Shown: positions 14,691 to 34,141, numbered from the stretch's first letter. The stretch is 64,000 nucleotides of DNA from an uncultured Candidatus Binatia bacterium (GCA_965242525.1 OZ251459.1:1408001-1472000), one strand, 5' to 3'. Numbers and translations are program-made. Notes: a model not told the origin generated them from the sequence alone.

Positions 14691-17600
14691 TCAGCCGTCC
14701 TGGTCCTGCCACAGCCGCAACTGCTCGGGCTCGTCGATGCGGTCGCCGTAAGCGAGTCGGGATAGGTGGTAGAGGGTCTCGAAGTCGCTGCCCGAGGCCG
14801 CGGCCTCGCCCGGGAGGTCGATCCCGGTGAAGGCCCGTGAAACGGGAAGCACCTCCAACACCGCCTCCAGGGAAGCGAAGAAACGCGGGTCCCGGTCCAC
14901 TTGGGCCGCGGCCAGCATCCCGCGCGCCGCGTCCAGGGACCGGAGCCGGGCCAGGTTGGCGGCGTGGTGGATGGCGTCGATCATGCCGCGGGAGCCGTCC
15001 GCGGGACCCAGGGCGCCCTTGGCGGCCCGCCGGGCGCTGTCCCAGAGGCGGACCATGCTGCCCTTCTTCTCGGCGAGCCGGCCCACGACCTCCCCGTCCA
15101 GATCGACGCCCACCGCGCGGGCGAGCTTGAGCGCTTCGTCGTAGGAGAACGCGGGCGCACGGAAGGCGTGCCAGGACAGGACGAAGAAAGAGGTCGCGGG
15201 GTCGAGGTCGGCGTTGGCCTTGAGACGGGTCAGTCGTTCCAGGAGCCAGCGCTTGACCTCGCGCCGGGCTGCGTCCAGCGCGTCCTCCGGCGTTGCCGCG
15301 TAGGGGTCCCATTCCTCCTCGAACAACACCTGCTGGCGCCGACCCCGGCGCTCCGCGGGAAGCTCCCGCGGCGTGCCCCGCTTGAGGGGCCAGTGGCGCG
15401 AGAACTCCTCCAGCGCCGGCCCGAAGGAGGCCAGGTAGAGATCGACCCCGGTAATGCCCGCGTCCTGGAACTCGCCCACCCGCCGGCGCACCGCCTGCGC
15501 CACACGGGGCTCCACGTCCTCCCAGTACAGGTTCGGCTCGTCCCGCACCAGGAAGCTCTGGGTTCGTTCCACCGCCCGCGGACGGCAAACCAGGAAGATG
15601 GTGCTGTTGGCCGCGGCCTTGTCCTTGATGTGGAGGCTCCCCTCGGCCTCGGTGTTGACGGGCCACGAGGCGGTGATAGTGAAGCCCGACTCGATCAGCC
15701 CCTTGGTGAGCGCGTCCCAGGCCCCGGTGGCCTTGTGGGTGAACATGAGGGTCATGATCCCGTCCGGCTTCAGCACCCGGCGGCACTCCGCGAAAATAGC
15801 CGCCATCCGCTCCCGGTATTCCTGCCCGGCAAGCGCCCGCGCCCCCTTCTCTCCCCGGAACTTGGCCGGGTTGGCCACCGCCTCGTTCTCCTTGTCCGTG
15901 AGCTGCCGGCGGAACAGTTCGGGAAAGACGTGCCCCGCGGTGCGCTTGAGCCACACGTAGAAGAAGTCCGACAACTCCGCGTACATCACGTTGTCGTAGT
16001 AGGGCGGGTCCATGACCACCACGTCGATGGAGGCATCCATGAGATGGTCCAGGCTGTCGCCCGGCTTGCAGGTGATGGTGATCGGGGGTGGGTCGGAGGA
16101 GGGGGATCTGCTGTCGTCGTGGTCGATGAGGGCGGAGGGGCTGGTGTGGTGGCCGTGGCTGATGGGGGCGGAGGGGCTGGTACGGTGGCCGTGGCTGATG
16201 GGGGCGGGATGGCTGGTGCGGGCGGCGTGACTGGTGGAATCATTTTCTCTGGTGGGGTCAGGGCCGTCAATAGGGTTGGCGCGGCTGCTGCGAACGTCGC
16301 GGCCGGTAGAGTCGGGACGGCTGGCGCGGGCGGCGTAGCTAGTGGGGTTGCTGTGTTCGATGTGGTCGGCGTGATCGATGGGATCCGTGTGTTCGGTGCG
16401 CTTGGCGCTGGCTGCGCGGCCGGTGCTGTCGATGCCGTCGGTCTGGCCATTGTGCCCGGTCCGGCCGGTGTGGTTGATCCCGGCGAACAGATCGCCATCG
16501 CGGGCCGGGGCGTCGGGGCGGACGAGGGCGACGAGTTCGGCGATGCACTTGGCGGTCTGCCCGATGGCCCAGTCATAGCCGAGACCGGTGACCAAAGGGG
16601 CCATCTCGGCGTAGGACCACTTGAAGGAGAAGTCATGCCGGTCGAAGGTGTTGACCATGACCTCCCGATTCACGTGCCACCGGGTCATACGGGAGTTGTA
16701 ATCGCGTAGCTTGTCGAAGGACAGCGCGAGATACCCGTAAGCCGCCTTCTGGATCTCGCCCAACCGGCCCGCGGCCCGGTCGGCGTCGAGCATCTCCCGG
16801 AAGACCTCTACGCTCGTGCCGTGGCAGAGAAGCTGGCGAGGCGAGAACAGGTCGCGCCATTTCTTTACACCGTAGATTTTTGATCGGTCGCTATACATGT
16901 CGTCATAGTTTTCACTCGGCACGAAATCGAAGGCTTCCCACTCCGGCAGCCTCTCTTCGAGTCGCACTCGGACCTCGGCGCCGTTGTCGTCCTCGGGCCG
17001 CGGCGCCCGGTAGCCGCGGACCCACTTCTCGCGGATCCGCCCCGTCTTGGTCCTGACTTCGACCAGCTTCTTATAGACGACAGCGTAAAGCTGCTCTCCC
17101 ATCCTCCCGGCTTGCGCCTGTTCCTTGATCACGTCCCCGTCGATGATCCGCCCGCAATCCGGGTAGGGACAGTCGCCCGTCCCGTCCGAGACCGTGCCCG
17201 GCGATTGCTCCGCCACGGAATCCACCATGTCGAACGCGCACGTGCGGCTCTCCGATCCGGGACCGCCGCGGAGATGCGGCACGAGCCTGACCCCCGCGCC
17301 GCCCGGCGCCAGCCGCCAATTGGGAGAGAGCGGAACGAGCCCGTCGCAGTACGGGCAGGTGATGGTGCGCGCCCAGAGATAACCGTCCGGGCGGGTATGG
17401 TCCCCGGGCTCCTCCGGGAACACGCCGGCAAGACGTTCCCGGACCGTGCTCGTCAACCGGTTACCGAGTTCTTCCACGACGCTCTTCAGGGAAACGCCGA
17501 ATCCTGCAGGCCATTCGACCGTTGCGCGTTCGATCAAGGCAGCGACGGGATTCAGGTCGTTCGCCACGGTCTGCAACCCTGCCCGAACGGACTCGAACGG

Positions 17601-18008
17601 CACGCTCCCGCCGCCCGCCGTCGGATCGAGAACGACGGCATTGCTCACCGTGTTCTCGCGTAACCAATCCCTGTGATCATCGTCGGGTATGTAGCCGAAA
17701 GCCCGCGGGTAACCATACGCATCCGCACCCAGGCGTTCCCCCGTGCGGTTGGCCGCGGATATCCTCCTCTTCGCGGCCACAGGGTCGCCGTGAATCCCGA
17801 TCACGTGCAGGAACCGCTCCCGGTCCGCGTCCGCCGGCAGCAGGGACCCCAGCACCGCGGCCCGCGACGCCACCAGCGGACGCCGCGCCCACCAGACGTG
17901 CAGCCGGTTCGGCGCCGGGAACGGCGTCATCGGCGTCCGCTCGCGAATGCTCTCGATGCCAAGCGCCGCAATCGGCAACCACCGCTCGATCAGGCGGACG
18001 TCAGACAC
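14691..18008 (-). CDS. DUF1156 amino-methyltransferase (RL-system component) with in-frame repeat insertion
   Basis: Likely GTG start at 18008 (VSDVRLIERWLP...LHVWWARRPL); motif I DPTAGGGS, Zn-ribbon CPYC/CPYPDC, motif IV DPPYYDN. Confidence 0.9.
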   Translation of the reverse strand: MSDVRLIERWLPIAALGIESIRERTPMTPFPAPNRLHVWWARRPLVASRAAVLGSLLPADADRERFLHVIGIHGDPVAAKRRISAANRTGERLGADAYGYPRAFGYIPDDDHRDWLRENTVSNAVVLDPTAGGGSVPFESVRAGLQTVANDLNPVAALIERATVEWPAGFGVSLKSVVEELGNRLTSTVRERLAGVFPEEPGDHTRPDGYLWARTITCPYCDGLVPLSPNWRLAPGGAGVRLVPHLRGGPGSESRTCAFDMVDSVAEQSPGTVSDGTGDCPYPDCGRIIDGDVIKEQAQAGRMGEQLYAVVYKKLVEVRTKTGRIREKWVRGYRAPRPEDDNGAEVRVRLEERLPEWEAFDFVPSENYDDMYSDRSKIYGVKKWRDLFSPRQLLCHGTSVEVFREMLDADRAAGRLGEIQKAAYGYLALSFDKLRDYNSRMTRWHVNREVMVNTFDRHDFSFKWSYAEMAPLVTGLGYDWAIGQTAKCIAELVALVRPDAPARDGDLFAGINHTGRTGHNGQTDGIDSTGRAASAKRTEHTDPIDHADHIEHSNPTSYAARASRPDSTGRDVRSSRANPIDGPDPTRENDSTSHAARTSHPAPISHGHRTSPSAPISHGHHTSPSALIDHDDSRSPSSDPPPITITCKPGDSLDHLMDASIDVVVMDPPYYDNVMYAELSDFFYVWLKRTAGHVFPELFRRQLTDKENEAVANPAKFRGEKGARALAGQEYRERMAAIFAECRRVLKPDGIMTLMFTHKATGAWDALTKGLIESGFTITASWPVNTEAEGSLHIKDKAAANSTIFLVCRPRAVERTQSFLVRDEPNLYWEDVEPRVAQAVRRRVGEFQDAGITGVDLYLASFGPALEEFSRHWPLKRGTPRELPAERRGRRQQVLFEEEWDPYAATPEDALDAARREVKRWLLERLTRLKANADLDPATSFFVLSWHAFRAPAFSYDEALKLARAVGVDLDGEVVGRLAEKKGSMVRLWDSARRAAKGALGPADGSRGMIDAIHHAANLARLRSLDAARGMLAAAQVDRDPRFFASLEAVLEVLPVSRAFTGIDLPGEAAASGSDFETLYHLSRLAYGDRIDEPEQLRLWQDQDG
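16119..16478 (-). repeat. Degenerate 9-nt tandem array (~40 units) with a 36-nt higher-order repeat, inside the methyltransferase CDS
   Basis: Units such as gtggtcgat, ggggctggt, gtggctgat and gcggccggt; the 36-mer encodes PISHGH(R/H)TSPSA twice. Confidence 0.85.
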
Positions 18009-18012
18009 CGGC

Positions 18013-18750
18013 TCAAATCCATTCGCGGGGTTGTTGCGCCAGGACACCCTCGCCCAATACCCCGAAGTACGAGCGGGTGGCGGTGAAGAACCTGCGTAGA
18101 ACGCCGTCATGGTCCGGCAACAGGTTCCGGCGCGCCCACTGTTCCATCGCCGCGCCATGCGCGAAATCCCGCCAGCCTTCATCGAGCCGGCGTCTGTGTC
18201 TTTGCCGCGCCCTCTGCAATCGTTCGACGTTCAAGCCCAGGATCTCGATGGTTCGGCTTACCCGGCCCACCGCCACGCCGACTTGCCCGCAAGCCCTGTC
18301 GTCCGCCTCCATCCGGCCGTTGACGCGCACACGTATGAGCGACGGAAGCGCGGGAAGCGATCTGGGGTCGATGAAATCCGGATCCGTGTTGCCGCCCTTT
18401 GCCTGGCCGCAACTCCTGCCCGGGAATCGTTCGTCGTCGGCGCGGATCGACGCATCGTCCGACGATCCGCCCCGGCAGCAGGCGATCATGTTGGCGGCAT
18501 CGAAAGTGTGTTCGCGTCCGTATCGGGGATGGTTCCGGGGCACGACGTGTTCGACCTGCCGGTCAGCGCCCCGGATGTCGTTTTCGCAGTAGCCGCATAG
18601 CCCGTGTTGAAGGTTCACCAGGGTTTCGGCGAGCTGCCTGTAACGCTCCCCGCCGTGACGGTATCCCTGCCAGCTCGCATGGCCTTTGGCGCGGTCCAGG
18701 TATTCATCGAGACCGGGGACGGAGCCGGCGAATTCGCGGATGCGCTTCAC
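18013..18750 (-). CDS. ptuB: Septu/retron-type HNH endonuclease PtuB (copy 1)
   Basis: GTG start overlaps the ptuA stop; QHGLCGYCE, VEHVVP, NMIACC and SCGQAKG motifs. Confidence 0.8.
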   Translation of the reverse strand: MKRIREFAGSVPGLDEYLDRAKGHASWQGYRHGGERYRQLAETLVNLQHGLCGYCENDIRGADRQVEHVVPRNHPRYGREHTFDAANMIACCRGGSSDDASIRADDERFPGRSCGQAKGGNTDPDFIDPRSLPALPSLIRVRVNGRMEADDRACGQVGVAVGRVSRTIEILGLNVERLQRARQRHRRRLDEGWRDFAHGAAMEQWARRNLLPDHDGVLRRFFTATRSYFGVLGEGVLAQQPREWI

Positions 18751-20015
18751 CGGGACCCTGCCATTTCCTTCAGCAGCTTGCGGCGCTCGATCTCGATATC
18801 CGCCTCGTGAATCTCGGGCGCGTCCGGCGACAGCTCCACCAGGCGGGATCTGAGGGATGCGGCTTCCTCGCATTCGCCCCGTCCATCCTCCACCAGACGC
18901 ATATAGTCATCCAGCGTGGCCTTGAACTCGTTGTCCGGCCGTTCGTCCACCCGCATCACGGTAAAGAGCACGTCGCCGGCTTCCGCCCCGAACGTCGGTG
19001 CGGGCGGTCTTCCGGCAACGATGCGGCCGTCCTCGCGGCGCAATTCGACGATATGCCTAGGCTGAACCGTCGTCAGCACCTGTGGGCTGTGGGTGGAGAC
19101 GATGAATTGCGTGTTCGGGAAAGTCCGCCTCAGATCGACCAGGATCCGCTGCTGCCACGCAGGGTGCAGGTGCAGATCCACCTCGTCGATCAACACCACC
19201 GCTTCGGATTCGAGCGGGTCCTTGAGATGCGGGTTCCCTTGCGCCATGCGCCGAGCAAGGTCGGCCGCCAGCGCCAGGACGATCCGGTAACCGCCGCTCA
19301 ACTGGTCGAGCGCCAACTCTTCGAGCTTGCCTGTTTCCGATTCCAGGGACACAACAAACCGCAAAGGTCTGAGTTTGATCCGAGGCTCGGAGACGCCGGG
19401 TACCATGCCCTCGATCGCCTTGCGGACGGCGTTCAGGTCTTTCAACCGATGCTTGAAGTTCTGCCGTTCGTTCTTTTCCCGCAATTCTTCATTCTCCCGG
19501 TCATAGAACCACTTGAAGAACTCCCTGAAGTTAGTGCGCGGGGCGAGCGCTCCTTCCAATGCCGCGTAGCGCGGGAAATCTGTTTTGAAATTCCGGCGTC
19601 GATGCGGCGTATCGAAGACCGCACGGTCCGTGTCATAGAAGGCGATGATGGGAAGGTCGAGGGGTTCCGCTTCCTCCCGGTCCGCGGCGATGATCCCGTC
19701 CATCCTCTCCTTCAACATCCGGCGGCTGGATTTCCCCCGCGGCCCGAGCTTGCGCCGATCCCATTGGATCTCGTCGCAGGTCCGCAGCATCACCCGCAAA
19801 GGCCGCTGTCCGCGCAGGTCGGTGTTGCGGAACCCGACGCCGGAGACCTCCGGCAACAATATCGGAACGCTGCCGAGTCCCGCGGCGATGGCGCTCAGGA
19901 CACTCGTCTTGCCGTGCCCGTTGGCGCCGTAGAACACGGTCAGGTCACGGTCGAGCGGCAGGTCGAGCTTCTCGATGGCGCGGTAGTTCTCGATCTCCAC
20001 CCGTTCAAGCTTCAT
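18747..20015 (-). CDS. ptuA: Septu-type ABC/AAA ATPase PtuA (copy 1)
   Basis: Walker A GANGHGKTS, signature LSGG, Walker B LIDEVDLHLHPAWQQ, H-loop STHSP; followed by an HNH gene. Confidence 0.82.
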   Translation of the reverse strand: MKLERVEIENYRAIEKLDLPLDRDLTVFYGANGHGKTSVLSAIAAGLGSVPILLPEVSGVGFRNTDLRGQRPLRVMLRTCDEIQWDRRKLGPRGKSSRRMLKERMDGIIAADREEAEPLDLPIIAFYDTDRAVFDTPHRRRNFKTDFPRYAALEGALAPRTNFREFFKWFYDRENEELREKNERQNFKHRLKDLNAVRKAIEGMVPGVSEPRIKLRPLRFVVSLESETGKLEELALDQLSGGYRIVLALAADLARRMAQGNPHLKDPLESEAVVLIDEVDLHLHPAWQQRILVDLRRTFPNTQFIVSTHSPQVLTTVQPRHIVELRREDGRIVAGRPPAPTFGAEAGDVLFTVMRVDERPDNEFKATLDDYMRLVEDGRGECEEAASLRSRLVELSPDAPEIHEADIEIERRKLLKEMAGSR

Positions 20016-20163
20016 GGTCGGTCCCCCTTCTCCTCCGTGGCATGGTCCGCGGGCTTCGCAGGGCCGTCAGCGCCCGGCGCGGGTGTTTGCGGCGCATCGC
20101 CATGCCGAGCCGGCAGGCCGCCGCCTCGCGGCCCATGGCCTCAGCGCCTTCGGCCACTGCATG
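20005..20163 (-). pseudogene. Decayed fragment homologous to the 3' end of the RL small gene (28848-29000)
   Basis: AVAEGAEAMGREAAACRLGMAMRRKHPRRALTALR aligns with SVAEGIEAMGREEAAYWLGMAMHRKNPRRVLTALR; the nucleotide similarity is also visible. Confidence 0.85.
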
Positions 20164-20252
20164 GATCTTGCCGTTGCTCCGATTGGCAACCACCACTCCA
20201 TAAGTTGAGTATCATGGCTGCCTCCCCGCGGCTCTGGTCATCGCTGCACCGT

Positions 20253-21224
20253 TCACCGTTTGGTGAGCTTCGGGCCGGCGTACACGACGTAAACCGGCTT
20301 GCCGTGCTGGATGGGCATGGAAAAGTGCACGCGCAACGCGGGGTGGCGCACCTTTCCATGCCAAGTGCAAGATAGAGACTTCCCGGGTTCGTCTGGATGT
20401 GGAAACGTCAGCGCACGACGGAAGTGTCCTTTCTCGGACTCCGAGGAGTCGGAGAACAAGCCTTGATCGTCGATTCCGGTGAAGTAATCCTGATAGATCC
20501 GGTGGCCCTCGGAAGTCCGGGCACCGTTGGCGTCGAACGCGCACGCGAACCGGTCCAGGATGTCGAGCAGCACGAGGAGACGATCCGCTGCGCTCTTGAC
20601 GAACGGGGTCCCTTCGAGAGGATCGAAGCAATCGCCGGCAAACGTCAAATTTTTGAAGCGGCTCGTCGAGATCTTTCGCATGTCACTCCAGGATCGGATC
20701 GGAGGCGAGGCGTCCCGCAACCTCCTTTCCAGTTCCGTCGCGTCCCGCCAGTTTTCGAGAGCCACCGTCGGGTCGTCCGAGTCCATGTCGTCACGTCGCC
20801 ACGTCACTTCAACGGGCGAGAAGTCCCAACCCGACGGCGTAAAGCTGACCAAGGAGCATGCCATGTCGTGCAGCGTTCGATACGCCGCTTCGCCGACCGC
20901 GTGCTCCGTCACCACCTCACCGCGGCATTCCAGGTAGTCGTCGGCCTCGTGTCGGCGAAGGGCGTCGTCGTCCCAAAAGGGGCCGCTGTGCGTCAACCAA
21001 CGCATCACGGAGCGCCTCTCGTTCACGGAAAGCTGCTGAAGCGCCTGCTGCATGGGCATGCCCGGCATGGGTTCGGCCATCAGCAACTTGCGATTGCAGT
21101 ACACTTCCAGATCGAAACGCCGGGCCGCAGTACGCATGGAACTCATCCGTGCAAAGGCGTCACGAAACGCCCCCGTATCGCGGAACTGTCCGTGGATCGA
21201 CAGGTCGTTGGCGAGGAGATCCAA
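20253..21224 (-). CDS. Hypothetical protein, Menshen NsnC-position effector (putative RelE-like RNase C-terminus)
   Basis: 323 aa, abuts the DUF3696 ATPase; C-terminus WHGKVRHPALRVHFSMP...VYVVYAGPKLTK resembles RelE-fold ends. Confidence 0.6.
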   Translation of the reverse strand: MDLLANDLSIHGQFRDTGAFRDAFARMSSMRTAARRFDLEVYCNRKLLMAEPMPGMPMQQALQQLSVNERRSVMRWLTHSGPFWDDDALRRHEADDYLECRGEVVTEHAVGEAAYRTLHDMACSLVSFTPSGWDFSPVEVTWRRDDMDSDDPTVALENWRDATELERRLRDASPPIRSWSDMRKISTSRFKNLTFAGDCFDPLEGTPFVKSAADRLLVLLDILDRFACAFDANGARTSEGHRIYQDYFTGIDDQGLFSDSSESEKGHFRRALTFPHPDEPGKSLSCTWHGKVRHPALRVHFSMPIQHGKPVYVVYAGPKLTKR

Positions 21225-21225
21225 T

Positions 21226-22380
21226 TCAACACCAGCCGGCGAAGTAGTCCATGTCCTTGTCGAACTGGTCGAAGAAGCCTTCCGGCCACGTATCTACGTT
21301 GCCGTCCCGATCCATGACGAGGGTTTGGACCTGCGCGGCGCCATCTGATTCCTCGTCATGCTGCAAGCGGAAGAAGTGGAGAGCGACGTCTTCGGGAAGA
21401 AGAACGGCATCCTTTACCGCCCGCCGAATGCCGTTCAACACGTGGTCGCTGTGCGTCTCGAGGACGACCTGTACCCCGGCAGCCGCGACTTTGGCCAGGA
21501 ACGCGCCCATCGCGGCTTGCCCGGCCGGGTGGAGATGCACTTCCGGGTTTTCGATCAACAGCAGGTCGCCTTTGCTTGCCGACAAGGCCGCTACCACTAT
21601 CGGCAGTACCTGCGTCAATCCGAAGCCGCTATGGATCGGACGGTGGAAGTCCATGCCTTTGGACGTCCTTAGCCCCAAGGTCAGTGCGTTCGCTTGCGGG
21701 ACCTTCCCGACGGTCAACTCGCAGCCCGGGAAGAACCGGTTCATGCAGGCTTCGACCTGACGCAACCGCGTCGGCGGGGCATCCTCGATAATCAATCCGT
21801 CGAGAACCATCTCGTCACCGCCCGAATAGAGGACGCTGGCCGCATGTTCTCCTTCCGGGCCGACCACGGGTGCGTACCGGATATCCTCCAATGGATAGGT
21901 CTCGCGCGGTCCTACCCGTTCGGCAGTGAGGTAGGTGAGTCCGCATAGACGATCCACCAACGAACCGGCCCAGGTCTCTTCGCCTTGCGACAATGGCAAC
22001 AAGTGGTACAGTGACCCGGATTCGTCTTGCGCAACGTCATCGATGCGAATCTGTGCTACTTCCATGGACATCTCGGTGCGTCCGCCCACGAATTCCCATT
22101 GAAACTCGTGTTCGTCATCCAGCAGCGCAATCCCAATGGAGCGGCGCCCATGGGTCTGGTCGATGACGTCGGACACGGCGCCAAGGCGAACGGCGGCGCC
22201 ATTGAGCATCAGACGCCCCGCCCATTCATCCTCCCGCATGGACTGATGCAGGAGAGCCAGCGCCTGCATCACCGACGATTTCCCGGACGCATTGGCGCCG
22301 GAAAGCAGGGTCAGCGGGCAGAGCGGCAACTTCAACAACGTGAAACACTTGAAGTGCCGAAGATCAATTCGCCTGAGCAC
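21226..22380 (-). CDS. DUF3696-type ABC/AAA ATPase (Menshen NsnB-like)
   Basis: GANASGKSS, GFGLTQVLP, LIENPEVHLHP, ETHSDH; C-terminal WPEGFFDQ typical of DUF3696. Confidence 0.85.
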   Translation of the reverse strand: MLRRIDLRHFKCFTLLKLPLCPLTLLSGANASGKSSVMQALALLHQSMREDEWAGRLMLNGAAVRLGAVSDVIDQTHGRRSIGIALLDDEHEFQWEFVGGRTEMSMEVAQIRIDDVAQDESGSLYHLLPLSQGEETWAGSLVDRLCGLTYLTAERVGPRETYPLEDIRYAPVVGPEGEHAASVLYSGGDEMVLDGLIIEDAPPTRLRQVEACMNRFFPGCELTVGKVPQANALTLGLRTSKGMDFHRPIHSGFGLTQVLPIVVAALSASKGDLLLIENPEVHLHPAGQAAMGAFLAKVAAAGVQVVLETHSDHVLNGIRRAVKDAVLLPEDVALHFFRLQHDEESDGAAQVQTLVMDRDGNVDTWPEGFFDQFDKDMDYFAGWC

Positions 22381-23455
22381 CCAGTATCTCCTCGAATTTC
22401 TGCCGGGTCATCTGGAACCGGCAGCGTACCTTCTTGGGGTCGTTCGGTCCGTAGGTAATCGAGATGTTGAAATCTTCGTCACCGAGAAGCCGGTACACGG
22501 ATTCGCGAAGAGGATGGGCGCACGCCCTGATCCGTTCCTCGCCGTAGCGGGACAAGCCGGTGCACATGACGTCCCAGAACGACGCATTGAGGACGCCGCG
22601 CCGGTCTTGCCCGGGGGCATGTTTCCTGAATGCATGCTGATCGAACAGCATGAAATTGTTGGCGAGGCCTCTCCGAAATTCTCCTGACAACGACGCCAAC
22701 TCGCCATCCGCCATTCCATTCATCTTGCGCAGACATTCCGCGAGAAAAACGTCCATGTCGCCGCGATATTCTGTGAGATCGAGGATTTGGAAGGCACAGA
22801 AGCGGTTGACGAACTCCCGGTCCCTCATCTTCTTCGCGTCCAGGCTGCCGCCAGTGGCGTTCAGGAAAACCTCCGACTTCGATTCGTCCTTGAGAAAACG
22901 AGTAGCCTTTCCCATGAACAGGCTGTTGCGCATCTGTTGCCGAGTCAGAGGCTCACCACTGTTCACCCTCTCGAAGATGTCGAGCCGGGCGCGCTCCGGC
23001 GCCTTCGAGTCGATGATGTAGAAGATGAGGTTGCAATCTTCGACGCGATTTTGAAGCTTGGACAAGAGATCCGTAAACCCTTTGCCGTGAAGTTCCTTTC
23101 GATCGGGAAGATCAAGGCGCAATTCGTTTTTCACGAACCGCTGAAAGGTGGACAGGCGCTGCAAGCCGTCCACCACGACCATCCTGCCTTTGTCGTCCTC
23201 CGCCAGGTAGAATACCGGCAGGGGGATGCGCATGATCACGGATTCGATAAGCTTGCTCTGCTTGTCCTCCGGCCAGATGAAATCGCGCTGGAAGTCAGGA
23301 TCCATGACGTAATTGTTCTGGTCGATTCGTCGAATGACGTCGTGGATGGTTCGGTTCTCGTGTCGAATCAGCAGGTCGTCGATAGGGTACTCGCCCCACG
23401 ACCCACTGTCGTAATCCAGACCTTCGGGTTCTTCGACTTGAAACTCATTGCCCAT
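22364..23455 (-). CDS. DUF262 (ParB-like) protein (Menshen NsnA-like)
   Basis: PDFQRDFIW, SKLIES, VVDGLQRLST and IFERVNSG motifs; start ATG 23455. Confidence 0.88.
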   Translation of the reverse strand: MGNEFQVEEPEGLDYDSGSWGEYPIDDLLIRHENRTIHDVIRRIDQNNYVMDPDFQRDFIWPEDKQSKLIESVIMRIPLPVFYLAEDDKGRMVVVDGLQRLSTFQRFVKNELRLDLPDRKELHGKGFTDLLSKLQNRVEDCNLIFYIIDSKAPERARLDIFERVNSGEPLTRQQMRNSLFMGKATRFLKDESKSEVFLNATGGSLDAKKMRDREFVNRFCAFQILDLTEYRGDMDVFLAECLRKMNGMADGELASLSGEFRRGLANNFMLFDQHAFRKHAPGQDRRGVLNASFWDVMCTGLSRYGEERIRACAHPLRESVYRLLGDEDFNISITYGPNDPKKVRCRFQMTRQKFEEILGAQAN

Positions 23456-23459
23456 GGTT

Positions 23460-24995
23460 TCAGTTACCTCCGGACGCAGCCTTCCTGTTGCCACGCACGC
23501 CCTCGATGCCAAAGGCTCGATCTTCTCTCAGCTTCGCCAGATTCTGCCGGACGTCCCGGGCGACTTCTTCGACCTCCCGCGCAACCCTGGTCTCAACTCC
23601 GAGCTCCCGTTCCAGCGCCGTCGTAAGGGGCAACAGAAAGCCCGCCGCGGGTGAAGCCTGGATCAGTTCCCGCATCCGCGCCGGCCCCAGGTCAATGCTG
23701 AACTCCATCAAGGCGACCAGGCATTCCCTTGAGGGCGAACTGATCTTGGGCAGGACTTCAAGCATTGCCTCGACGTCCTGCTCACAAGCAAGCGAAGTCC
23801 CGCTTGCGCCGACGTTCCTCATCTCAGGCGGCGAGTAGTACGACGCCATGAAGCGGATCAGGGTTTCGATCAGGCGATCCGGCCTACGTTTGTACCGCAA
23901 CAGGTAGTAGATATTGTACAGGCGCTCGGTCAGGTAGTACTGCTTGCGCCGGGCGGTACCGCCCGCCACCTGAACGACGCCCCGCTCGATGAGGCGGGCG
24001 AGGTGAGCGCTGCACTTGCTCGTCTCCACCCGGGACCTGTCCGCGATTTCCTTTGTGGTTGCCGGCCTCCATAGCTCTGCGAGCGCGAGATAGACCCGCC
24101 GTTCCTGGGCTGGGAGCGAGTCGATGTGGCTCTTGAAGTACTCCGTGTGGTCGTCCACCAAGTCGAGCAGGGCGTCCATGAGCTTGCGAAAAGACAACTC
24201 CCCACCGAAGCGGGCCACGATGGCGAGCAGGCGCGGGCTGCCGCCGGTGAGGATTTCCAGCGAACGAATCGTGTCGTGCGGACGGGGCTGGCCGGACACT
24301 TTTTCCCACAGGACGGCGCATTCGTCCGTATCGAGAGGGCGCAGGGTGAGGATCCGAAAGAGGTCGTACAGGGCGCGGTCCGGACGGTCTATCTCGTCGA
24401 AGCGGCTGGTGGCGCTGGCCAGCAGGATGATCCGGGGCTCGGTCTGGAGGGTCTTGCGCAGCCGCCATCCCGCTTCGGAGTCCGCCATATCCCCGAACAT
24501 CATGTTCAGGTTCTCCACGATCAGCACAAGCCGCTTGCCCTCTCGATCCGAGAAGTCCAGCAAGGAACCGAGGCAGCGCTCGGCAAGGATCTGGTCGTCA
24601 TGAATGGTGCGGAAATCTTCGAAGGTGCGGTGCAGGTCGGGACCATCCTCTTGGCGAGGCGCCTCGTCTGCCAGATGGGACAGGCATTCCAACCAGAACT
24701 CCCCCGCGGTGGCTACCTCGTAGCTTTCCTCTGCAAAGACGATGGGGAAGAAGCCAGACGACAGCGCAGCGTCCCGGCGCACCTCCGCGGCCACCCGCAG
24801 GAGCAGGCTGGTCTTGCCGCTCCCGCGCGGGCCGATCACGATCTGATGCGGGTTCGAGCTTCCGGTGCACTCGCGCAGCGTCTCGACCATGGAGTCGAAC
24901 TCGGCCGTCCGCACGCAGAAGGAAGCTACCAACTCGTCATCGCTGAAGAACCCCGGGTTGTACTTCCGTACCTTCGGGGGGGCGGTCACAGTCAT
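23460..24995 (-). CDS. Uncharacterised P-loop ATPase with winged-helix domain
   Basis: Walker A GPRGSGKTS, degenerate Walker B LIVENLN, LTGGSPR, wHTH-like ATTKEIADRSRVETSKCSAHLARLIERGVV; ATG overlaps the upstream stop. Confidence 0.75.
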   Translation of the reverse strand: MTVTAPPKVRKYNPGFFSDDELVASFCVRTAEFDSMVETLRECTGSSNPHQIVIGPRGSGKTSLLLRVAAEVRRDAALSSGFFPIVFAEESYEVATAGEFWLECLSHLADEAPRQEDGPDLHRTFEDFRTIHDDQILAERCLGSLLDFSDREGKRLVLIVENLNMMFGDMADSEAGWRLRKTLQTEPRIILLASATSRFDEIDRPDRALYDLFRILTLRPLDTDECAVLWEKVSGQPRPHDTIRSLEILTGGSPRLLAIVARFGGELSFRKLMDALLDLVDDHTEYFKSHIDSLPAQERRVYLALAELWRPATTKEIADRSRVETSKCSAHLARLIERGVVQVAGGTARRKQYYLTERLYNIYYLLRYKRRPDRLIETLIRFMASYYSPPEMRNVGASGTSLACEQDVEAMLEVLPKISSPSRECLVALMEFSIDLGPARMRELIQASPAAGFLLPLTTALERELGVETRVAREVEEVARDVRQNLAKLREDRAFGIEGVRGNRKAASGGN

Positions 24996-26353
24996 CGTTT
25001 GGCGCTCCGGGCAGATCCAGCCCCGGGCGAGGCGGAAGAAGCGCCGGATCGGCCGTACCGGACGCGCCACCAGTCTTCGAGTAGCCCCGACACGAAGCGG
25101 TAGCCGTCACCTTGCTTGGCCAGATACCCGTCGTGCTCCAGCACGTGGAGCACGTCTTCGATCAAGGGCGGGTCGGCCATGGTCTCGCCTGCAAGAGACT
25201 CGCTCTGCCTGACTTCACGGTCCAGGCCGCGGCGAACCTCACGTCGAACCCTGGCCTCGTCCGCAAGAGATTCGCCATACCGTCGGATGGCGTCGCTTGG
25301 CAGCCGACCGCGGTTGTTTGCAGCCTCGGTCAACATCTCCAGGGCGACCCGATACCCATCAACCCCGAGGACCATCCTCAATCGATCCTCGTAGTGCGGC
25401 AGGTCCGTCTGTCCCCGGATACCGAGCATCTCCCGGTCATAGACGCGCCCTACGTCTTCAAGGGAGGCGGCGCGCCGACCGGCCCGGCGCAGGTCCTCGT
25501 GAAGGACATCGAAGAACCTCTGCACGTGGTGGGGAACCTGACACCGAAGTCGCCGGCACATCTCCTGGCGGACGTCGAGGGGGAGGTCGATACGGTAGGT
25601 CTCCCCCAGAGCGCCGAGGCAGGCCATGGCGGTCTCCCTGTCCCAGGGCTTCAGGTCGAAAGGGGTGAAGATGTTCGCGTGGGCGCTGAGTCCGGCCTGT
25701 TGCAGGATGGGTTCGAGGCTCACGCTGCCGGAGAGGATCATGCAGACCCGGCCCTGATGCGCCTGGCCGTTCTTGCGAAGCCAACTCAGGAACTCATCCG
25801 CGGCCCGCCGACGCTCCGGCGTGATGCGGTAGTCGTCCCCCTTGAGCAACCGGTTGACGAGGATCGGCAGTTCGTCGATGGCGAGCGTCACCGGCCTTTC
25901 GTTCCCCGCCAGAGCCGCGAAGACCTCGTCGCCCTTCTGCCGCCAGTTGCCGGCATCGACCCCGGCGCGCAGCTTCATCCGCAAGTCTGCGCCAGCCAGT
26001 ACAGGAACTTGGCCGCCGACTTCGACCTCTGCCGGAAGGACATTGGCGAACAGGTCCCTGATCCGCTTCCAGGCGCCTTGCATCGTCCTCGACTGGAACC
26101 CGATCTCGGTGATGGCGTCTGCGGGGGTGGAGGCCCCCTCCAGATCAACGAAGACTGACTCGAAACTCCCCTCTTCCTTCAGCCGGCGCAACAGTTCCCG
26201 AACGAGGCTCGTCTTGCCCATGCGCCGTTGCGCAGTCAGCAGGGTATGGGCTCCGTCCCGAACCCGCTCCACAAGAGCCTCGATCTCGGCCTCTCGGTCG
26301 AAGAAGCGATCCCCTTCGACCCAGTTGCCGCCCGCCTTCCTGAGCGCCGCCAT
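24992..26353 (-). CDS. Uncharacterised AAA/STAND-like ATPase
   Basis: GNWVEGDRFFDRE, Walker A AQRRMGKTS, Walker B LAIDELP, ILSGS; C-terminal wHTH-like LEHDGYL...LLEDWW. Confidence 0.8.
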   Translation of the reverse strand: MAALRKAGGNWVEGDRFFDREAEIEALVERVRDGAHTLLTAQRRMGKTSLVRELLRRLKEEGSFESVFVDLEGASTPADAITEIGFQSRTMQGAWKRIRDLFANVLPAEVEVGGQVPVLAGADLRMKLRAGVDAGNWRQKGDEVFAALAGNERPVTLAIDELPILVNRLLKGDDYRITPERRRAADEFLSWLRKNGQAHQGRVCMILSGSVSLEPILQQAGLSAHANIFTPFDLKPWDRETAMACLGALGETYRIDLPLDVRQEMCRRLRCQVPHHVQRFFDVLHEDLRRAGRRAASLEDVGRVYDREMLGIRGQTDLPHYEDRLRMVLGVDGYRVALEMLTEAANNRGRLPSDAIRRYGESLADEARVRREVRRGLDREVRQSESLAGETMADPPLIEDVLHVLEHDGYLAKQGDGYRFVSGLLEDWWRVRYGRSGASSASPGAGSARSAKR

Positions 26354-26371
26354 GGTATTCCCATCAACCTC

Positions 26372-26409
26372 GTTGGCAATCGCACTGTTGGCAACGATAT
26401 TGTTGGCAA
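26372..26409. promoter_or_regulatory. Three GTTGGCAA boxes at exact 15-bp spacing upstream of the ATPase pair (putative operator)
   Basis: Boxes start at 26372, 26387 and 26402; the middle one is the palindrome GTTG-G-CAAC. Confidence 0.55.
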
Positions 26410-26471
26410 ACAATCCGGGCGATGTCAACCACCCCGGAAGACCAACTCGGTCAACGACTGTCCGACGCCAC

Positions 26472-27230
26472 TCAGATCCATGCCTGGGGACGTTCCTCGA
26501 GGACGCGCTCGCTTGCGGAGCCGAAGTAGCTTCGGTTCGTGGTAAAGAACCTGGGCAAACGTCCGTTCTTCGGCAGAAGCTCCCCACGAGCCGCCTCTTC
26601 CATCACGGTAAGGTCCTCGGCGAAATCCTCCCACCCATCGCTGAGCGCTCTCCAGTGTCTTTCCCGGGCGTCTCGCAAACGTCTGACGTTCAACCCCAGG
26701 AATTCGATGGTGCGTTGCACACGATAGGCGGACACGCCGACAGCTTCACACGCCGGTACATCGGCTTCCATCCTCCCATTGACAATGACTCGGGTAAGTG
26801 AAGGGAGCGCGGGCAGGGTTCGGGGGTCGATGAGGTCATCGTTCACCTGACCGCCCTTCTTCTGGCCGCAACTCTGATGGCGTCGCACCGGTTCACGATA
26901 CCGAGTTTCATCGGCCAACCGGTTGCTGCCATATGCGCCTTCCGTCCCGCCCTTGCAGCAGGCGATCATGTTGGTGACGTCCAGCGCCCTCAGTGCCCCC
27001 ACCGGGTCGCTTCGGGGAACCCAATGCTCGACCTGACGATCCAACTCGGTGAGGTCGATCTCACAGTACCCGCAAAGACCGTGCTGAAGGTCGGTCAGTC
27101 CGTCCAGCAGCTCTTTATGGGAACCCCCTGCATCGTGGGAACGGAATTCCCCCCATTCCGGGTCGCGCACATGATCGAGGTAATCCCTGAGCCCCGGAGC
27201 AGGCTCATGCAAGGCTCGGATGCGTTTCAT
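26472..27230 (-). CDS. ptuB: Septu/retron-type HNH endonuclease PtuB (copy 2)
   Basis: QHGLCGYCE, VEHWVP, NMIACC and SCGQKKG motifs; clear paralog of 18013-18750. Confidence 0.8.
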   Translation of the reverse strand: MKRIRALHEPAPGLRDYLDHVRDPEWGEFRSHDAGGSHKELLDGLTDLQHGLCGYCEIDLTELDRQVEHWVPRSDPVGALRALDVTNMIACCKGGTEGAYGSNRLADETRYREPVRRHQSCGQKKGGQVNDDLIDPRTLPALPSLTRVIVNGRMEADVPACEAVGVSAYRVQRTIEFLGLNVRRLRDARERHWRALSDGWEDFAEDLTVMEEAARGELLPKNGRLPRFFTTNRSYFGSASERVLEERPQAWI

Positions 27231-28504
27231 CTCGATTTTCCCATGCGGGCCAGCAATGAACGCCGTCTTATTTCGACGTCCGCCCGGTCGAGGGCATGGT
27301 CGCGGGGCGAAAGGTTCTCCAACTCCCTCCTGAGCGTCAGGGCTTCTTCCGATTCGCCTTCGTCGTCGCTGACGAGCCGCATGTACCGTTCCAGGGTTTT
27401 CGTGAATTCGTTGCCGGACGGACGCTGGTCCGTCCCCATCACCGAGGAGAGGACCACGCCCGCTTCTGCGCCATAGGTTGCCGAGGCAGGGGAACCGGCG
27501 ACGACACGGCCATCCTCTTCACGGACCAGCTCCACGATACGTTCCGGCTTGACCGTGGTCAGTACCTGCGGGCTGTGGGTGGAGACGATGAACTGTGCGT
27601 TCGGGAACGTCCGGGTGAGGTCGTCCAGTATCCGCTGCTGCCAGGAAGGATGCAGGTGCAGATCGACTTCGTCGATGAGAACCACCGCCTCGGATTCGAG
27701 AGGGTTGTCGAGATGTGGATTCCCTTGCGCCATCCGCCAAGCCAGGTCGGCCGCGAGGGCAAGCACCGCGCGATAGCCTCCGCTCAACTGGTCGAGAGCC
27801 AGTTTCTCGCTCTTCCGTCCCGTTCTCACGGACACCACGAACCGAGGCGGGTCCATCTCTATATGGGGTTCAGATACGTCGTCGAGCATGGAGGAGATCG
27901 CACGACGGAGGTTGGACAACTCGTCGAGCTGGTAACCGAAGTCACGCCGCTCCCTCTGTTCTCTCAACTCCTCGTTTTCCTTGAAATAGAACCACTCGAA
28001 CAACCCCTGGAAGTTCGTGCGTGACGAAAGCGCCCCCTTGAAGGCGTCGTATCGGTTCAGGTCCTTCCTGAAATCGGACCACCGCTCCGTCTGATCGAAG
28101 ATGACACGGTCGGTGTCGTAGAAGGCAACGATGGGAAACTCGACCCGCCGCCCAGCCTCGTGATCGCTGACGATTTCATCCGTTCTGTCTTTCAAGGCGC
28201 TGGTGTATTCTCGTTGCGCCGGTTGTCCTTTGGCTACGGTTCCGGACCAGGAAATACCTTCGACCGTGGTGAGGGCGACGTGTAAATCCGACGCGCCCAC
28301 ACGCAAATCGGTATCGAGAAGACCTCTCTCGGAGACGTTGGCAAACAGGTGGGGAATGGCGCCGAGCCCGGCTGCGACCGCGCCCAGAACGCTCGTCTTC
28401 CCGTGTGCGTTGGCGCCATGCAGAACCGTGAGCCGCGGGTCGAGCGTCAAGGCGAGCTTATCGACCGCACGGAAGTTCTCGATCTCCACCGATGCCAGCT
28501 TCAT
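27227..28504 (-). CDS. ptuA: Septu-type ATPase PtuA (copy 2)
   Basis: GANAHGKTS, LSGG, LIDEVDLHLHPSWQQ, STHSP; paralog of 18747-20015. Confidence 0.82.
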   Translation of the reverse strand: MKLASVEIENFRAVDKLALTLDPRLTVLHGANAHGKTSVLGAVAAGLGAIPHLFANVSERGLLDTDLRVGASDLHVALTTVEGISWSGTVAKGQPAQREYTSALKDRTDEIVSDHEAGRRVEFPIVAFYDTDRVIFDQTERWSDFRKDLNRYDAFKGALSSRTNFQGLFEWFYFKENEELREQRERRDFGYQLDELSNLRRAISSMLDDVSEPHIEMDPPRFVVSVRTGRKSEKLALDQLSGGYRAVLALAADLAWRMAQGNPHLDNPLESEAVVLIDEVDLHLHPSWQQRILDDLTRTFPNAQFIVSTHSPQVLTTVKPERIVELVREEDGRVVAGSPASATYGAEAGVVLSSVMGTDQRPSGNEFTKTLERYMRLVSDDEGESEEALTLRRELENLSPRDHALDRADVEIRRRSLLARMGKSR

Positions 28505-28531
28505 GGTCCCGACCCTTTCCCCTGGCCGAGT

Positions 28532-28726
28532 TCACTTTCCGAGACGACCGAGTTTGTTCAGGAGATGGTAGGACATGTCCTGGACCGTCACGTGGCAGGG
28601 ATTGAACGACCTGTCGCCGCAGCCCTCGGACTTGGCGGATACCGATGCCACGTTCTGGAAGGCGATGACGCAAAGCGCCAGCGCGATGACCGTCAACACG
28701 ACCTTGCTGTAGAGATCCAGTTTCAT
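28532..28726 (-). CDS. Small single-TM/secreted hypothetical protein (64 aa)
   Basis: GGAGG RBS; MKLDLYSKVVLTVIALALCVIAFQN hydrophobic helix; Cys pair CGDRSFNPC. Confidence 0.65.
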   Translation of the reverse strand: MKLDLYSKVVLTVIALALCVIAFQNVASVSAKSEGCGDRSFNPCHVTVQDMSYHLLNKLGRLGK

Positions 28727-29342: not shown

Positions 29343-32300
29343 CTATGCCTTCGCTTCCGCGGTGGCCGACACGTAGGCGGCGCCGCTGGCGAACCGCGCC
29401 AACCGCTGGGTCATCTTCTCCGGGGCGTCGCCCTGCATGGGCAGTCCCTCGGCGAAGGTCAACTCGAAACCCACTTCCATGGTCTGGGAGGCGGCGTCGC
29501 GAAGCTGGGCTTCGAGGAACTCCCGCACCGGCTGGGCGTCCGACACCGGCCCCCGGAACTCCAACTGGAACGAGCCGCGGTCACGGGTTTCGTACCCGCC
29601 GACGAGGGTCACCAGCTTGTCCGCGCCGGAAACGGCGCCCACCGCTCCCATCAGCCGAAAGGCGTCCCCGGCCTCGAACAGACGGATGGCGAGGACCGCG
29701 ACCTTCTCGATCTTCCGGGCGCGGGCCTGTTCCCAGAGCTTGGCCAAGGCTTCCTCGAGCAGGCCTTCGGCCGACAGGACGCCGGGAGGCGGTTCTTCCA
29801 CCCTGCCAGCGCCGTCCCCCGGAAGAGTCACATACGTTGTTTCCCTTTCCCGGTCCGTGTCCTTTCCGGCAGGGTCGGCGGCAGGCCGGCGGGGCGTCTC
29901 CGGTTCCGGCCGCGGCCAGATCCCCTTCTCCACCGCATAAGCCATGGTGAAGACCATGGACTGCTCATCCACGGCGATGGTGGGCAACGGGTCGCCGGGA
30001 CCGCACAGCAGGTCGCCGCGCTGATAGACGTATTCCCCCCGCTCGATGCCGCGCAGGATGCCGCGGATGAAGATATCGTCGCCCACCAGGATGGGCAGCG
30101 CCGGGTCCCGGCGGAACTCGTCGCGCAACGCGAGGGTCGTGATCTGCCCCTTGCGGAGCGGCGTGCGGTCGCGCACGTACGCGGGAGAGTCCGGCTCGTC
30201 CTCGGCAAGGCGGAGTTTCGACAGGTCCCGGAGGGCGCGCACGACTTGCCGTTGTCCCGAGCCGGGGCGGTCCGAGGTCGATTGCACGTCGATGGCCGAG
30301 TGCGCCAGATCGACGTTGCTCGCGCCGATGCGGTTCCGCGACGGGTAGAAGACGTGGCGGTAGCACTGCTGGACGGCCAGGGCCAACTCCTGCTCGGAAC
30401 GGGCTTCCAGTTCGCGGATCTTGTCCTGCTGGTACTCCGCGAGGTCCACCAGCCGCTCGGGCTTCTTCAGGTCCTGCAACGCCAGCCGCCGCTGGGACTT
30501 GCGCCGCATCTCCTCCTTGCGGGCGTCGTCCGCGGCCAGGAACACCAGGTTGTTGCGCAGCGTCCGCAGCGCAGAGCCTTCCGAACCCTTGCGGGAGTGG
30601 ATGCGTTCGATCAACTCGGGAACGCTCTCCACCGCGCTGCCGATGGCCACGCCGTCGTAGGCGAGCACCACCAGCCTGGGGCGGCCGTCGCCCACCTCGT
30701 CGGGGGCGTCGAAGGGGCCGCCCGGGAACGTTACGGCCTCGAAGGCGCCGCCCGCGCCGCCGCCGAAGATGCCGCGGATGCAGTCGTCCAGGTGGGCGCG
30801 GGTCTCGCCGGCGTCCACGTGCTGTTCCTGGCGCCGGATGATCTGGCTCAGGTTGGCTTCGGCGAGGAAGCGCATGGGCGCGCCGGGCCGGTCGTCGAGG
30901 TAGGCGGATTCCGCGACGAACTTCCGGCGCGCCTCCTCCACGAAGCTCAGGTCCAGGCCCGGGGCCAGCATGGAGTAGCGCAACTGGTGGGGAGACAGGC
31001 CCTTGAGGGGGTCGTTGAACGCGAGGGTGTGCATGAAGATCGTGCGCGCCACGTATGCGGCGTAGGGCGGCAGGCCCCGGTGGTGCTCGACGTCCATCTC
31101 CTCGGCCAGCGCCCTCTTGTCCGCGCCCGCCACGTCGTTGGCCATGGCCGGCAGGTATGCGGTCTGGCCGAGACGGGTGACGATCTCTTGCCGGATGGGC
31201 TCGTGGCCCGGGTCCATGTGGTGGAGATGGATCGCCGCGGCGTCCGCGGGCCGCTGCCGCCACAGGTGGGCGATGGTGCGGGCCAGCAGCCGCAGCATCC
31301 CGCGCACGCGCTGGAAGTTGCCCAGGGTTGCGGTCTTGGCCGTCAGGGTTCCCAGCACCTCGGGATGCAGCGGGTAGCTCCAGCGGAACGCCTCGGTGGT
31401 CTCGGGGCGCCCGGCGTCGCCGGACAGCGCCTCGCCGCCGGCGCTCCAAATCTCGCGGTACGCTGCGACGACCGAAGCGGCCCGGGAATCGTCGATGGCT
31501 TCGAACAGGCGCCGGCGCAGCACCTGCGCGGTCTCGTCCTCTTCCGTGGGGTTGAGCAGCGTGGCCTTGCGCGCGGAGACGCTCTCGGCTTCGGCCAGGC
31601 GGTCGGCGATGAACTGGTTCTCCGCACCGTAGGCATCCCCGGCGCGTCCGTCCTTGCCGATGGCCAGGGTATAGACGAGAGTCGCGTTGGGCGCTCCCTC
31701 CACCGCCTTGAACAGCGAGGTCAGGAACGCGGTCAACTGGTCGTGGGCGCCGTCGAACCGGCGCACCTTGCGCAGATACACCGAGAGCTCGTCGAGCAGG
31801 ACCAGGGTGGGTTCGCCCCCGAAGAGCTCCCGCAGGGTTTCGGCGCCCGGCGCCGCCCGATGCTCGTCGCTGGCGCGGACCCGTTCGTACCCTTCCCGCC
31901 CGGCGAGGGCGTAAGCGATCTCTCCCCAGGGCGTGCACGCCAGCACGCCATCGCCCATGGCCCGCCCGTTGGCGGGGTCCGCGTTCTCGCCGTCGAAGGC
32001 GGCGACCCGGACCGGGGCTTGCGGCAGCAGCGCAGGATCCACGAACTCGCCCGCGTCGGCCACGCCGGCCATGCCCCGGGCGGCATGGGTCAAGGCGATG
32101 AGGCCGTGGGTCTTGCCGCCGCCGTACGATGTGTCGAGCCGGAAGATCGCGGCGGCCTCGCCGCCCTTGCCGGTCAACCGCCGGCACACGTTGGCGAGCA
32201 GGTTCCTGATCCCCCTGGTGGGGTAGGTGTTGGCGAAGAAGCGGACCGGGTCCCGGTATTCGGCACTACCCTTCCCCACCACCACCTGGGCCAAGTCCGC

Positions 32301-33997: not shown

Positions 33998-34141
33998 AGC
34001 ATATCTATGGACCCGACCGCGGTCAACCCGCGAGCCAACATGGACCCTGCCCATGGCGCTCTCCGGGCGACCGTCCGCAACCGAAACGTTGGCAACGGAC
34101 TCGTTGTCGGAACCTCTGAACGATCGGGACAGGGGGCATGA

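Follow-up and report, generated by a model that had tools for sequence, protein, structure and literature searches.

A pair of overlapping genes, here called g1 and g2, lies between positions 23460 and 26353 of a 64,000-nucleotide stretch of genome from an uncultured Candidatus Binatia bacterium (GCA_965242525.1 OZ251459.1:1408001-1472000), which is referred to as the window and whose positions are counted from its first letter. The pair is one inherited, autonomous two-gene cassette that has spread horizontally. We see about an even chance that it is, more specifically, an NLR-like (STAND-type) sensor pair, autonomous and horizontally spread, with an autoregulated promoter, and that in the window it is one of four cargo modules carried by an Hma system.

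Both genes are on the minus strand. The first, g1 (24992-26353; ATG at 26353, stop TGA at 24994-24992), encodes a 453-residue ORC/Cdc6-like AAA+ ATPase of the archaeal-ATPase type with a C-terminal winged-helix-like domain, and the second, g2 (23460-24995; ATG at 24995-24993, stop TGA at 23462-23460), encodes a 511-residue STAND/ORC-like ATPase composed of nucleotide-binding, helical and winged-helix domains (NBD-HD-WHD). The g1 stop and the g2 start share the sequence ATGA, a 4-nt overlap, and the ATG at 26353 is the start position of most g1 homologs. An earlier interpretation, made by a model from the DNA alone (the sequence-only reading), had described two P-loop NTPases with an ATGA overlap, which the open reading frames (ORFs) bear out; it placed the outer limit of the element at 26409, a position that proved to be the outer edge of an array of upstream boxes and not a start codon.

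A co-inherited and mobile two-gene cassette

A scan of species-representative genomes yielded 80 loci, and in 79 of these a g2 homolog directly follows g1, the exception (L047) having g1 in two pieces and no g2. Nearly all g1-g2 pairs are at most 27 nt apart, and 24 of 78 have stop and start codons that share 4 nt. By record title, the loci derive from Gamma- and Alphaproteobacteria, Binatia, Latescibacterota, Gemmatimonadota, Acidobacteriota (Vicinamibacterales and Terriglobia), Chloroflexota/Dehalococcoidia, Nitrospirales, several Desulfobacterota, Planctomycetota, Chlorobium and Bacteroidota (Paludibacter). After clustering of 1,092 called ORFs, the other gene clusters were each common to 11 loci at most, and no third conserved gene was found in the 80 related loci; an antisense artefact cluster (c3), which lies over g1 in 8 loci as a result of greedy ORF calling, was left out of the neighbour counts. 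The flanks in many loci consist of ordinary housekeeping, metabolic or transport genes, and of the systems present around the pair in the window, Menshen occurs within 10 kb in 3 of the 80 loci (L023, L028 and L052), Septu in 10 and Hma in 13.

Protein searches show that relatives of g1 and g2 number in the thousands, many at 70-90% identity, and a g1 profile run against 1.84 billion representatives retrieved 695 clusters with E <= 1e-30. The search for longer or fused forms of g1 returned one 1061-aa protein that covers 28% of g1 and carries g2-type domains with no effector, a weak negative result, and this protein is probably a read-through. Plasmids gave three distant matches (21-23% identity), of which the two inspected have the same two-gene layout and are annotated just as 'ATP-binding protein' and 'tetratricopeptide repeat protein'.

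Three loci carry a second, diverged g1-g2 pair beside the first, in tandem or inverted orientation: L007 (14943-16790), L045 (18474-21023) and L061 (13691-16122). Compared with the window, these second pairs are approximately 36-57% identical in g1 and 43-47% in g2, the matches being partial in L007. In L006 and L011 there is a second copy of g2 alone, at 35-46% identity and partial in L006. Such tandem or inverted second copies resemble clusters of paralogous receptors.

Fold, motifs and association of the two ATPases

The Walker motifs and the g2 winged helix that had been quoted from the DNA are present in the translations. In g1, Walker A (AQRRMGKTS) spans residues 41-49 (26207-26233) and Walker B (LAIDE) residues 157-161 (25871-25885), with D160 and E161 invariant in 34 sequences. 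In g2, Walker A (GPRGSGKTS) spans residues 55-63 (24807-24833) and Walker B (LIVEN) residues 158-162 (24510-24524), followed by a TrmB-type winged helix-turn-helix at residues 297-353 (23937-24107; Pfam TrmB, E 7.8e-7) and by a conserved helical C-terminal domain at residues 402-511 (23463-23792) that has no Pfam family and that follows an array of tetratricopeptide repeats (TPRs) in homologs. The sequence-only reading regarded the pair as one active and one degenerate ATPase, and the distinction between a canonical DE and a non-canonical EN holds; the term degenerate does not, because E161 and N162 of g2 are invariant in 44 of 44 aligned members, down to 37% identity, so that EN is a trait of the family and not a sign of decay. 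From these motifs, g2 would bind nucleotide as a switch with little hydrolysis, and g1 would be capable of hydrolysis.

Models of both proteins support the STAND- or ORC/Cdc6-like class originally proposed for them. The g1 model (mean pLDDT 87, pTM 0.85, from a 34-sequence alignment) matches 2qen and 2fna best, then archaeal and eukaryotic Orc1/Cdc6, and the g2 model (mean pLDDT 83, from a 44-sequence alignment) matches Orc1, CED-4, Apaf-1 and NRC3/NRC4 (Foldseek E 4e-8 to 5e-6). The Orc1/Cdc6 structures 2qby, 1fnn, 2v1u and 1w5t, in which an AAA+ base and lid are followed by a winged helix, are among the top matches of both. Pfam gives general ATPase families alone for g1, and for g2 AAA_16 (1.1e-9, above cut-off), the TrmB winged helix and an ORC-CDC6-like match just below cut-off, with neither protein reaching the 33.2-bit cut-off of PF01637 (ATPase_2; 25.0 bits for g1 and 23.7 for g2). 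A profile search of the PDB returned weak matches to 2qen and 2fna for g1, and TPR proteins and a weak ORC4 match for g2, and the ESM Atlas gave nothing more specific than 'ATP-binding protein' clusters. In Pfam, neither protein has a LuxR or SARP output domain.

The sequence-only reading could not assign the pair to a named system, and neither PADLOC 2.0.0 nor NCBIfam 20.0 assigns it to one. In PADLOC-DB 2.0.0 there is no match beyond the P-loop except to the winged helix alone, and the P-loop match, to mad8 (E 3e-4 and 1.1e-3), covers 30-60 residues; in NCBIfam 20.0 the anti-phage models DS8 (10.9 bits) and DS41_1 (16.3 bits) score far under their cut-offs. A literature search that left out the clade tables of a STAND census (PMC13581612; 589 clades) found no description naming the pair.

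The two proteins are strictly co-inherited (79 of 80 loci), and a model of the complex, with an ipSAE of 0.56 as compared to 0.27 for the best control, contacts that agree to at least 64% between runs and partner pLDDT of at least 79, gives weak support to the idea that they form a heteromer. Of 157 solved complexes, 116 pass the mark applied to such models, as do 2 of 215 mismatched pairs; at an ipSAE of 0.60 or less, where the g1-g2 model lies, the calibration holds just 18 of the 157 solved complexes plus both mismatches that passed. Furthermore, solved ORC-like heteromers exist, and the pass may come from likeness to them.

Most g2 homologs are longer than the copy in the window. Relatives align to window residues 1-397, continue through a variable stretch, and then align to residues 397-495 in the same frame, such that most complete homologs (n=75) are 700-1,500 aa long. 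The middle stretch consists of TPRs belonging to many TPR families and measures 63-1003 aa in 51 genes. Across 1,176 pairs from 49 genes, median pairwise identity falls from 73% in the ATPase module to 50% in the C-terminal domain and to 34% in the middle, with the qualification that the measure for the middle region penalises length differences; pairs that are at least 80% identical in the ATPase module can drop to approximately 30% in the middle. G+C is also lower in the middle than in the ATPase part for 43 of the 49 genes (median difference -3 points).

A tandem operator overlapping the cassette promoter

The repeat boxes noticed upstream of the pair in the sequence-only reading are three exact copies of GTTGGCAA, at 26372-26379, 26387-26394 and 26402-26409, which makes an array (26372-26409, minus strand) with a spacing of 15 bp, positioned between a -35 hexamer and the g1 start. 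On the coding strand the three boxes read TTGCCAAC, the core of the palindrome TGTTGSCAACA. The array overlaps a promoter-like site on the minus strand (26428-26399) that consists of TTGACA, an 18-nt spacer and AACAAT, and that is the best sigma-70-like match (10/12) in the 8.7 kb scanned (20000-28700). An array over the promoter suggests autorepression.

The arrangement recurs in the family as 2-5 copies of TGTTGSCAACA at a 15-bp period. Taking TTG(C/G)CAAC with at most one mismatch as a box, and 60 loci with a clear ATG start, box pairs at 14-16 bp are found upstream of g1 in 46 loci, as compared to none of 60 control stretches inside g1, and the spacing is exactly 15 bp for 65 of 81 neighbouring box pairs. 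Single boxes number 38 in the control stretches, many of which probably reflect a conserved Phe-Ala-Asn codon run. In 22 of the 60 loci, the first operator box is preceded by a TTGAC at a distance of no more than 30 nt. In L022, five tandem 15-bp units (AAATTCGTTGGAAAC/G) extend from approximately 110 to 25 nt upstream of g1, an expanded operator array.

In the 4.2-Mb genome to which the window belongs, the tandem operator occurs as a sole copy. A single GTTGSCAAC at 34088 in the window was considered and set aside as within chance, given that 5 of 100 shuffles reach two matches. The same genome encodes an orphan, short-form paralog of g2 (G000:C1:3156664-3158319; L093:6664-8319) with 44% identity and an AAA_16 and winged helix-turn-helix composition, for which no g1-like partner was found; just upstream of it are GTTGnCAAC-like boxes, again at a 15-bp period, and just before these boxes a REP-like palindrome. 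Because the TrmB/MarR-like recognition helix of g2 is invariant and the orphan paralog has boxes of its own, g2 is likelier than g1 to be the operator binder. The conservation of the operator makes regulation of the cassette directly testable.

A proposed mechanism

In the mechanism that we propose, g2 would bind ATP as a switch and not as a motor, and its winged helix would bind the operator and repress the operon. In long alleles, the TPR array would recognise a foreign (phage) protein, ligand binding would drive assembly of g2 with g1, and the resulting assembly would act on DNA or consume ATP and stop infection. The assembly itself is taken to be the output because no enzymatic effector is encoded. 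The TPR-less allele of the window would be a ligand-independent or regulatory variant, or would sense through its C-terminal domain, and the cassette promoter in the window probably also drives the Menshen genes inserted 4 nt downstream.

A more specific and tentative version, rather unlikely in its full form, holds that the cassette is an effector-less NLR-like immune module in which g2 supplies a swappable TPR sensor and g1 the hydrolysing partner, that the DNA-bound heteromer is held repressed on its own operator until a phage protein triggers direct action on DNA or transcription, and that the module has been exchanged among at least 10 phyla at 40-80% protein identity. Should the cassette defend, it would add a two-protein, effector-less design to bacterial NLR-like immunity, with an ATPase assembly as its output, and it would provide a natural allele series, from no TPRs to approximately 1000 residues of them, for asking how sensor arrays set specificity.

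Association with defence genes

Direct neighbours of the pair in different loci include AbiE, Wadjet, a type III restriction-modification (RM) system, Dsr2 together with Avs3, a Lamassu-like gene, TmtA, SoFic and PDC-S01, amongst others. The neighbour test applied PADLOC to 325 cluster representatives standing for 407 neighbour genes; 43 matched at E <= 1e-15, and 6 of the 43 were set aside as generic (a radical-SAM 'pVip', an SspA/DndA-like desulfurase, three ankyrin proteins and a Lon-like BrxL). A credible match lies within three genes of the pair in 33 of 78 loci, next door in 25, and is something other than Hma, Septu or Menshen in 21. On the strength of its embedding in Hma, its NLR-like build and its variable sensor, a role in defence is plausible for the cassette, though unproven.

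Several observations weigh against an immune sensor pair. The remaining 45 of the 78 loci have no PADLOC match within three genes, and the enrichment of homologs near defence genes that the sequence-only reading anticipated does not rise above a very high background: credible PADLOC matches make up 70 of 407 neighbour genes (17%) and 11 of 71 control ORFs (15%), the control being small and confined to six arbitrary 20-kb stretches, with matches in 5 of 6, of a single genome, that of the window, which is very rich in defence genes. The Hma genes around the Hma-embedded instances are 70-85% identical, and a small number of events may lie behind these instances. Pfam, PADLOC and NCBIfam gave no nuclease or other effector family for g1 or g2, in agreement with what had been noted from the sequence, and no effector fusion appeared in the Pfam assignments of the top 120 relatives of each protein. 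In g2 of the window itself, the C-terminal domain follows straight after residue 397, and there is no repeat sensor domain. That g2 binds the operator is something we infer from its helix and its paralog. No match was found among 50,697 phage records, and with this result and just three distant plasmid matches, cultured model hosts are lacking. Finally, many STAND clades are non-immune in the STAND census (PMC13581612), and STAND ATPases with TPRs there include transcription regulators.

The genome of the window is unusually rich in defence-type genes: at E <= 1e-15, the control stretches (L085-L090) matched type I and type IIG RM systems, a second DUF1156 methylase with a PLD-helicase, HEC-01B, PDC-S01 twice, PDC-S19 and PDC-M24B. 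This is a caution for guilt-by-association arguments: in genomes this rich in defence genes, neighbourhood counts alone do not discriminate.

The lack of enrichment, the operator conserved in the pair's own promoter, the TrmB/MarR-type winged helix with no effector, and the non-defence STAND clades together favour a different interpretation, in which the pair has no part in immunity and is either a STAND-type transcription switch or a selfish maintenance module, which binds its own promoter, and perhaps unknown targets, and spreads without protecting against phage. This we consider unlikely. The pair has no conserved regulated neighbour or regulon, its operator is unique in the genome, and it has neither a LuxR nor a SARP output domain, whereas a hypervariable TPR array of lower G+C, nesting within Hma and varied defence neighbours are typical of immune sensors.

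The TPR-less allele in the window

Compared with the NLR-like sensor pair that we favour, a less flattering account of the copy in the window is that it is a decaying remnant, in which loss of the TPRs inactivated g2 and the two genes are kept as a promoter-bearing leader for Menshen. The lengths of homologs speak for it, in that, of the 75 complete g2 homologs, 70 exceed 600 aa or are divided between two ORFs (the latter in L033, L044 and L055), as does array loss between sister loci with the same flanks, where g2 is 508 aa in L073 and approximately 710 aa in L070 and L072. However, both reading frames in the window are intact, g2 keeps its frame across the deletion and still ends in the C-terminal domain, none of the 50 columns that are invariant in the 44-sequence alignment has changed in it, and both proteins give confident models. 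Furthermore, short in-frame forms of g2 that keep the C-terminal domain recur in 5 other loci (L031, L037, L050, L053 and L073), and 10 of the 119 non-self clusters listed in the protein search are 497-527 aa long at 95-100% coverage, one of them holding 24 member sequences. Decay of the copy in the window is thus distinctly unlikely, and its g2 is the zero-TPR extreme of the family. The possibility raised earlier, that g2 is a deletion derivative of a longer protein with no activity, is right in so far as this is a short, TPR-less form of a usually longer protein; loss of activity does not follow, with the invariant residues kept and short forms recurring.

Cargo of the Hma system

The pair lies in a row of four cargo modules between HmaC and HmaB, all on the minus strand and all identified, apart from g1-g2, with PADLOC. 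The Hma system as a whole spans 11424-32381 (HmaC 29343-32381, HmaB 14691-18182 and HmaA 11424-14687). From HmaC, the cargo consists of a Septu system (ptuA 27227-28504, ptuB 26472-27230), g1-g2, a Menshen system (nsnA 22364-23455, E 1.7e-109; nsnB 21226-22380, E 1.6e-102; nsnC 20253-21224, E 9.8e-109) and a second Septu system (PtuA/PtuB, 18013-20015). The position between Septu and Menshen, 4 nt before nsnA, was correctly seen in the sequence-only reading, which missed the enclosing Hma system and the second Septu; telling apart four independent cargo systems within one Hma system is a gain in annotation for the window. Exact contigs from two public runs span both the g2/nsnA and the PtuB/g1 junctions, and these runs may be the source of the window itself.

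Such nesting has precedent. In the work of Payne et al. (bioRxiv 10.1101/2024.01.29.577857), 931 of 1,485 Hma systems contain embedded genes, often Septu; embedded cassettes often defend, and new defence systems were predicted from embedding in Hma.

An intimate link with the host system, in which the pair would be an accessory sensor or regulator of Hma that, for example, controls or targets HmaB or HmaA, is suggested by the 13 loci with Hma genes within 10 kb, in 7 of which HmaB is the first gene after g2 (L008, L009, L010, L016, L019, L040 and L051), and by HmaC itself being a match to the ORC-like ATPase family. We find this very doubtful: in 67 of the 80 loci Hma genes are absent from the 10 kb around the pair, L023 and L028 carry the pair elsewhere than between HmaC and HmaB, the tandem operator is nowhere else in the genome and hence on no Hma promoter, neither g1 nor g2 matches an Hma model in PADLOC, and unrelated cargo is known in Hma systems from Payne et al. 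(bioRxiv 10.1101/2024.01.29.577857).

Hardly credible is a five-gene unit g1-g2-nsnABC with g1-g2 as the upstream sensor or regulator of Menshen, which the sequence-only reading had offered beside a stand-alone pair: the g2 stop is just 4 nt from the nsnA ATG at 23455 (which GGAGGT precedes), and co-transcription in the window is likely because there is no promoter-like site between g2 and nsnA and the sole strong one in 20000-28700 is upstream of g1, yet Menshen is within 10 kb in only the three loci listed above and never directly downstream of g2 or in the arrangement of the window, the pair is without Menshen in 77 loci, and PADLOC defines Menshen by NsnA, NsnB and NsnC alone. The stand-alone version of that proposal is the one that holds, and the 4-nt junction is, from comparison of the loci, a local result of cargo shuffling.

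Comparison with known systems

The closest parallels to the pair are Avs and other NLR-like STAND NTPases, as represented in the STAND census (PMC13581612). Like these, g2 has an NBD-HD-WHD switch with the fold of CED-4, Apaf-1 and NRC, most of its homologs carry a TPR array far more variable than the ATPase part, and the pair spreads horizontally and adjoins defence systems in many loci. Unlike these, the cassette has no fused effector and requires a second, ORC-like ATPase gene; g2 has a conserved domain after the repeats and an invariant EN Walker B, the operator is conserved, and there is no match to the Avs models of PADLOC.

Archaeal Orc1/Cdc6 proteins, which form a heterodimer on origin DNA (PDB 2qby, 2v1u), share with both g1 and g2 the AAA+ base and lid with a C-terminal winged helix, and also the arrangement of two paralogous ATPases that act near repeated DNA boxes adjoining their own gene. 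In contrast, sequence identity is 11-17%, the boxes of the cassette surround no unwinding element but are in a promoter, the cassette belongs to bacteria, is mobile and has no conserved replication genes nearby, and g2 homologs carry TPRs. The DE of the ORC/Cdc6 Walker B is present in g1, and g2 has EN instead.

PF01637/COG1672 proteins, amongst them 2qen, 2fna and the ATPase_2-DUF234 protein at 32590-33969 in the window, provide the best fold and PDB profile matches of g1 and have the same combination of ATPase and winged helix. Unlike them, g1 is below the Pfam cut-off, lacks DUF234 and is always paired with g2.

STAND transcription regulators of the MalT/LAL and AfsR types combine an ATPase switch and TPR-like repeats with DNA binding at repeated promoter sites. 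Unlike them, g1-g2 has no LuxR or SARP domain and no conserved target operon, and a partner ATPase is required.

The candidates HEC-01 to HEC-09 and PDC of Payne et al. (bioRxiv 10.1101/2024.01.29.577857) resemble g1-g2 in being nested between hma genes and also found outside Hma, as expected of independent systems. The ATPases of HEC candidates differ in being ABC-type with nuclease partners, and no HEC or PDC model recognises g1 or g2.

Other features of the island

The two Septu copies of the window are diverged paralogs: in tblastn searches of related loci, PtuA1 and PtuA2 find the same genes at approximately 56-60% versus 72-85% identity.

Just upstream of HmaC, at the edge of the island, is another ORC-like ATPase, the 459-aa ATPase_2 and DUF234 protein with a winged helix (32590-33969, minus strand), which matches the PADLOC candidate PDC-S27 at E 1e-29.

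HmaB (14691-18182) contains at residues ~560-700 a low-complexity insert of His/Ser/Pro/Thr-rich repeats (for instance, SHGHRTSPSAPISHGHHTSPSA) between two parts that match a methylase, and HmaB homologs align in two pieces around it.

Contigs at 85-95% likeness to the window, from runs X1, X3, X4 and X6, pile up over g1-g2 (23612-26320) more than over the flanks. This suggests that close relatives of g1-g2 are present in several organisms of those run samples, the contig depths being sums over many organisms.

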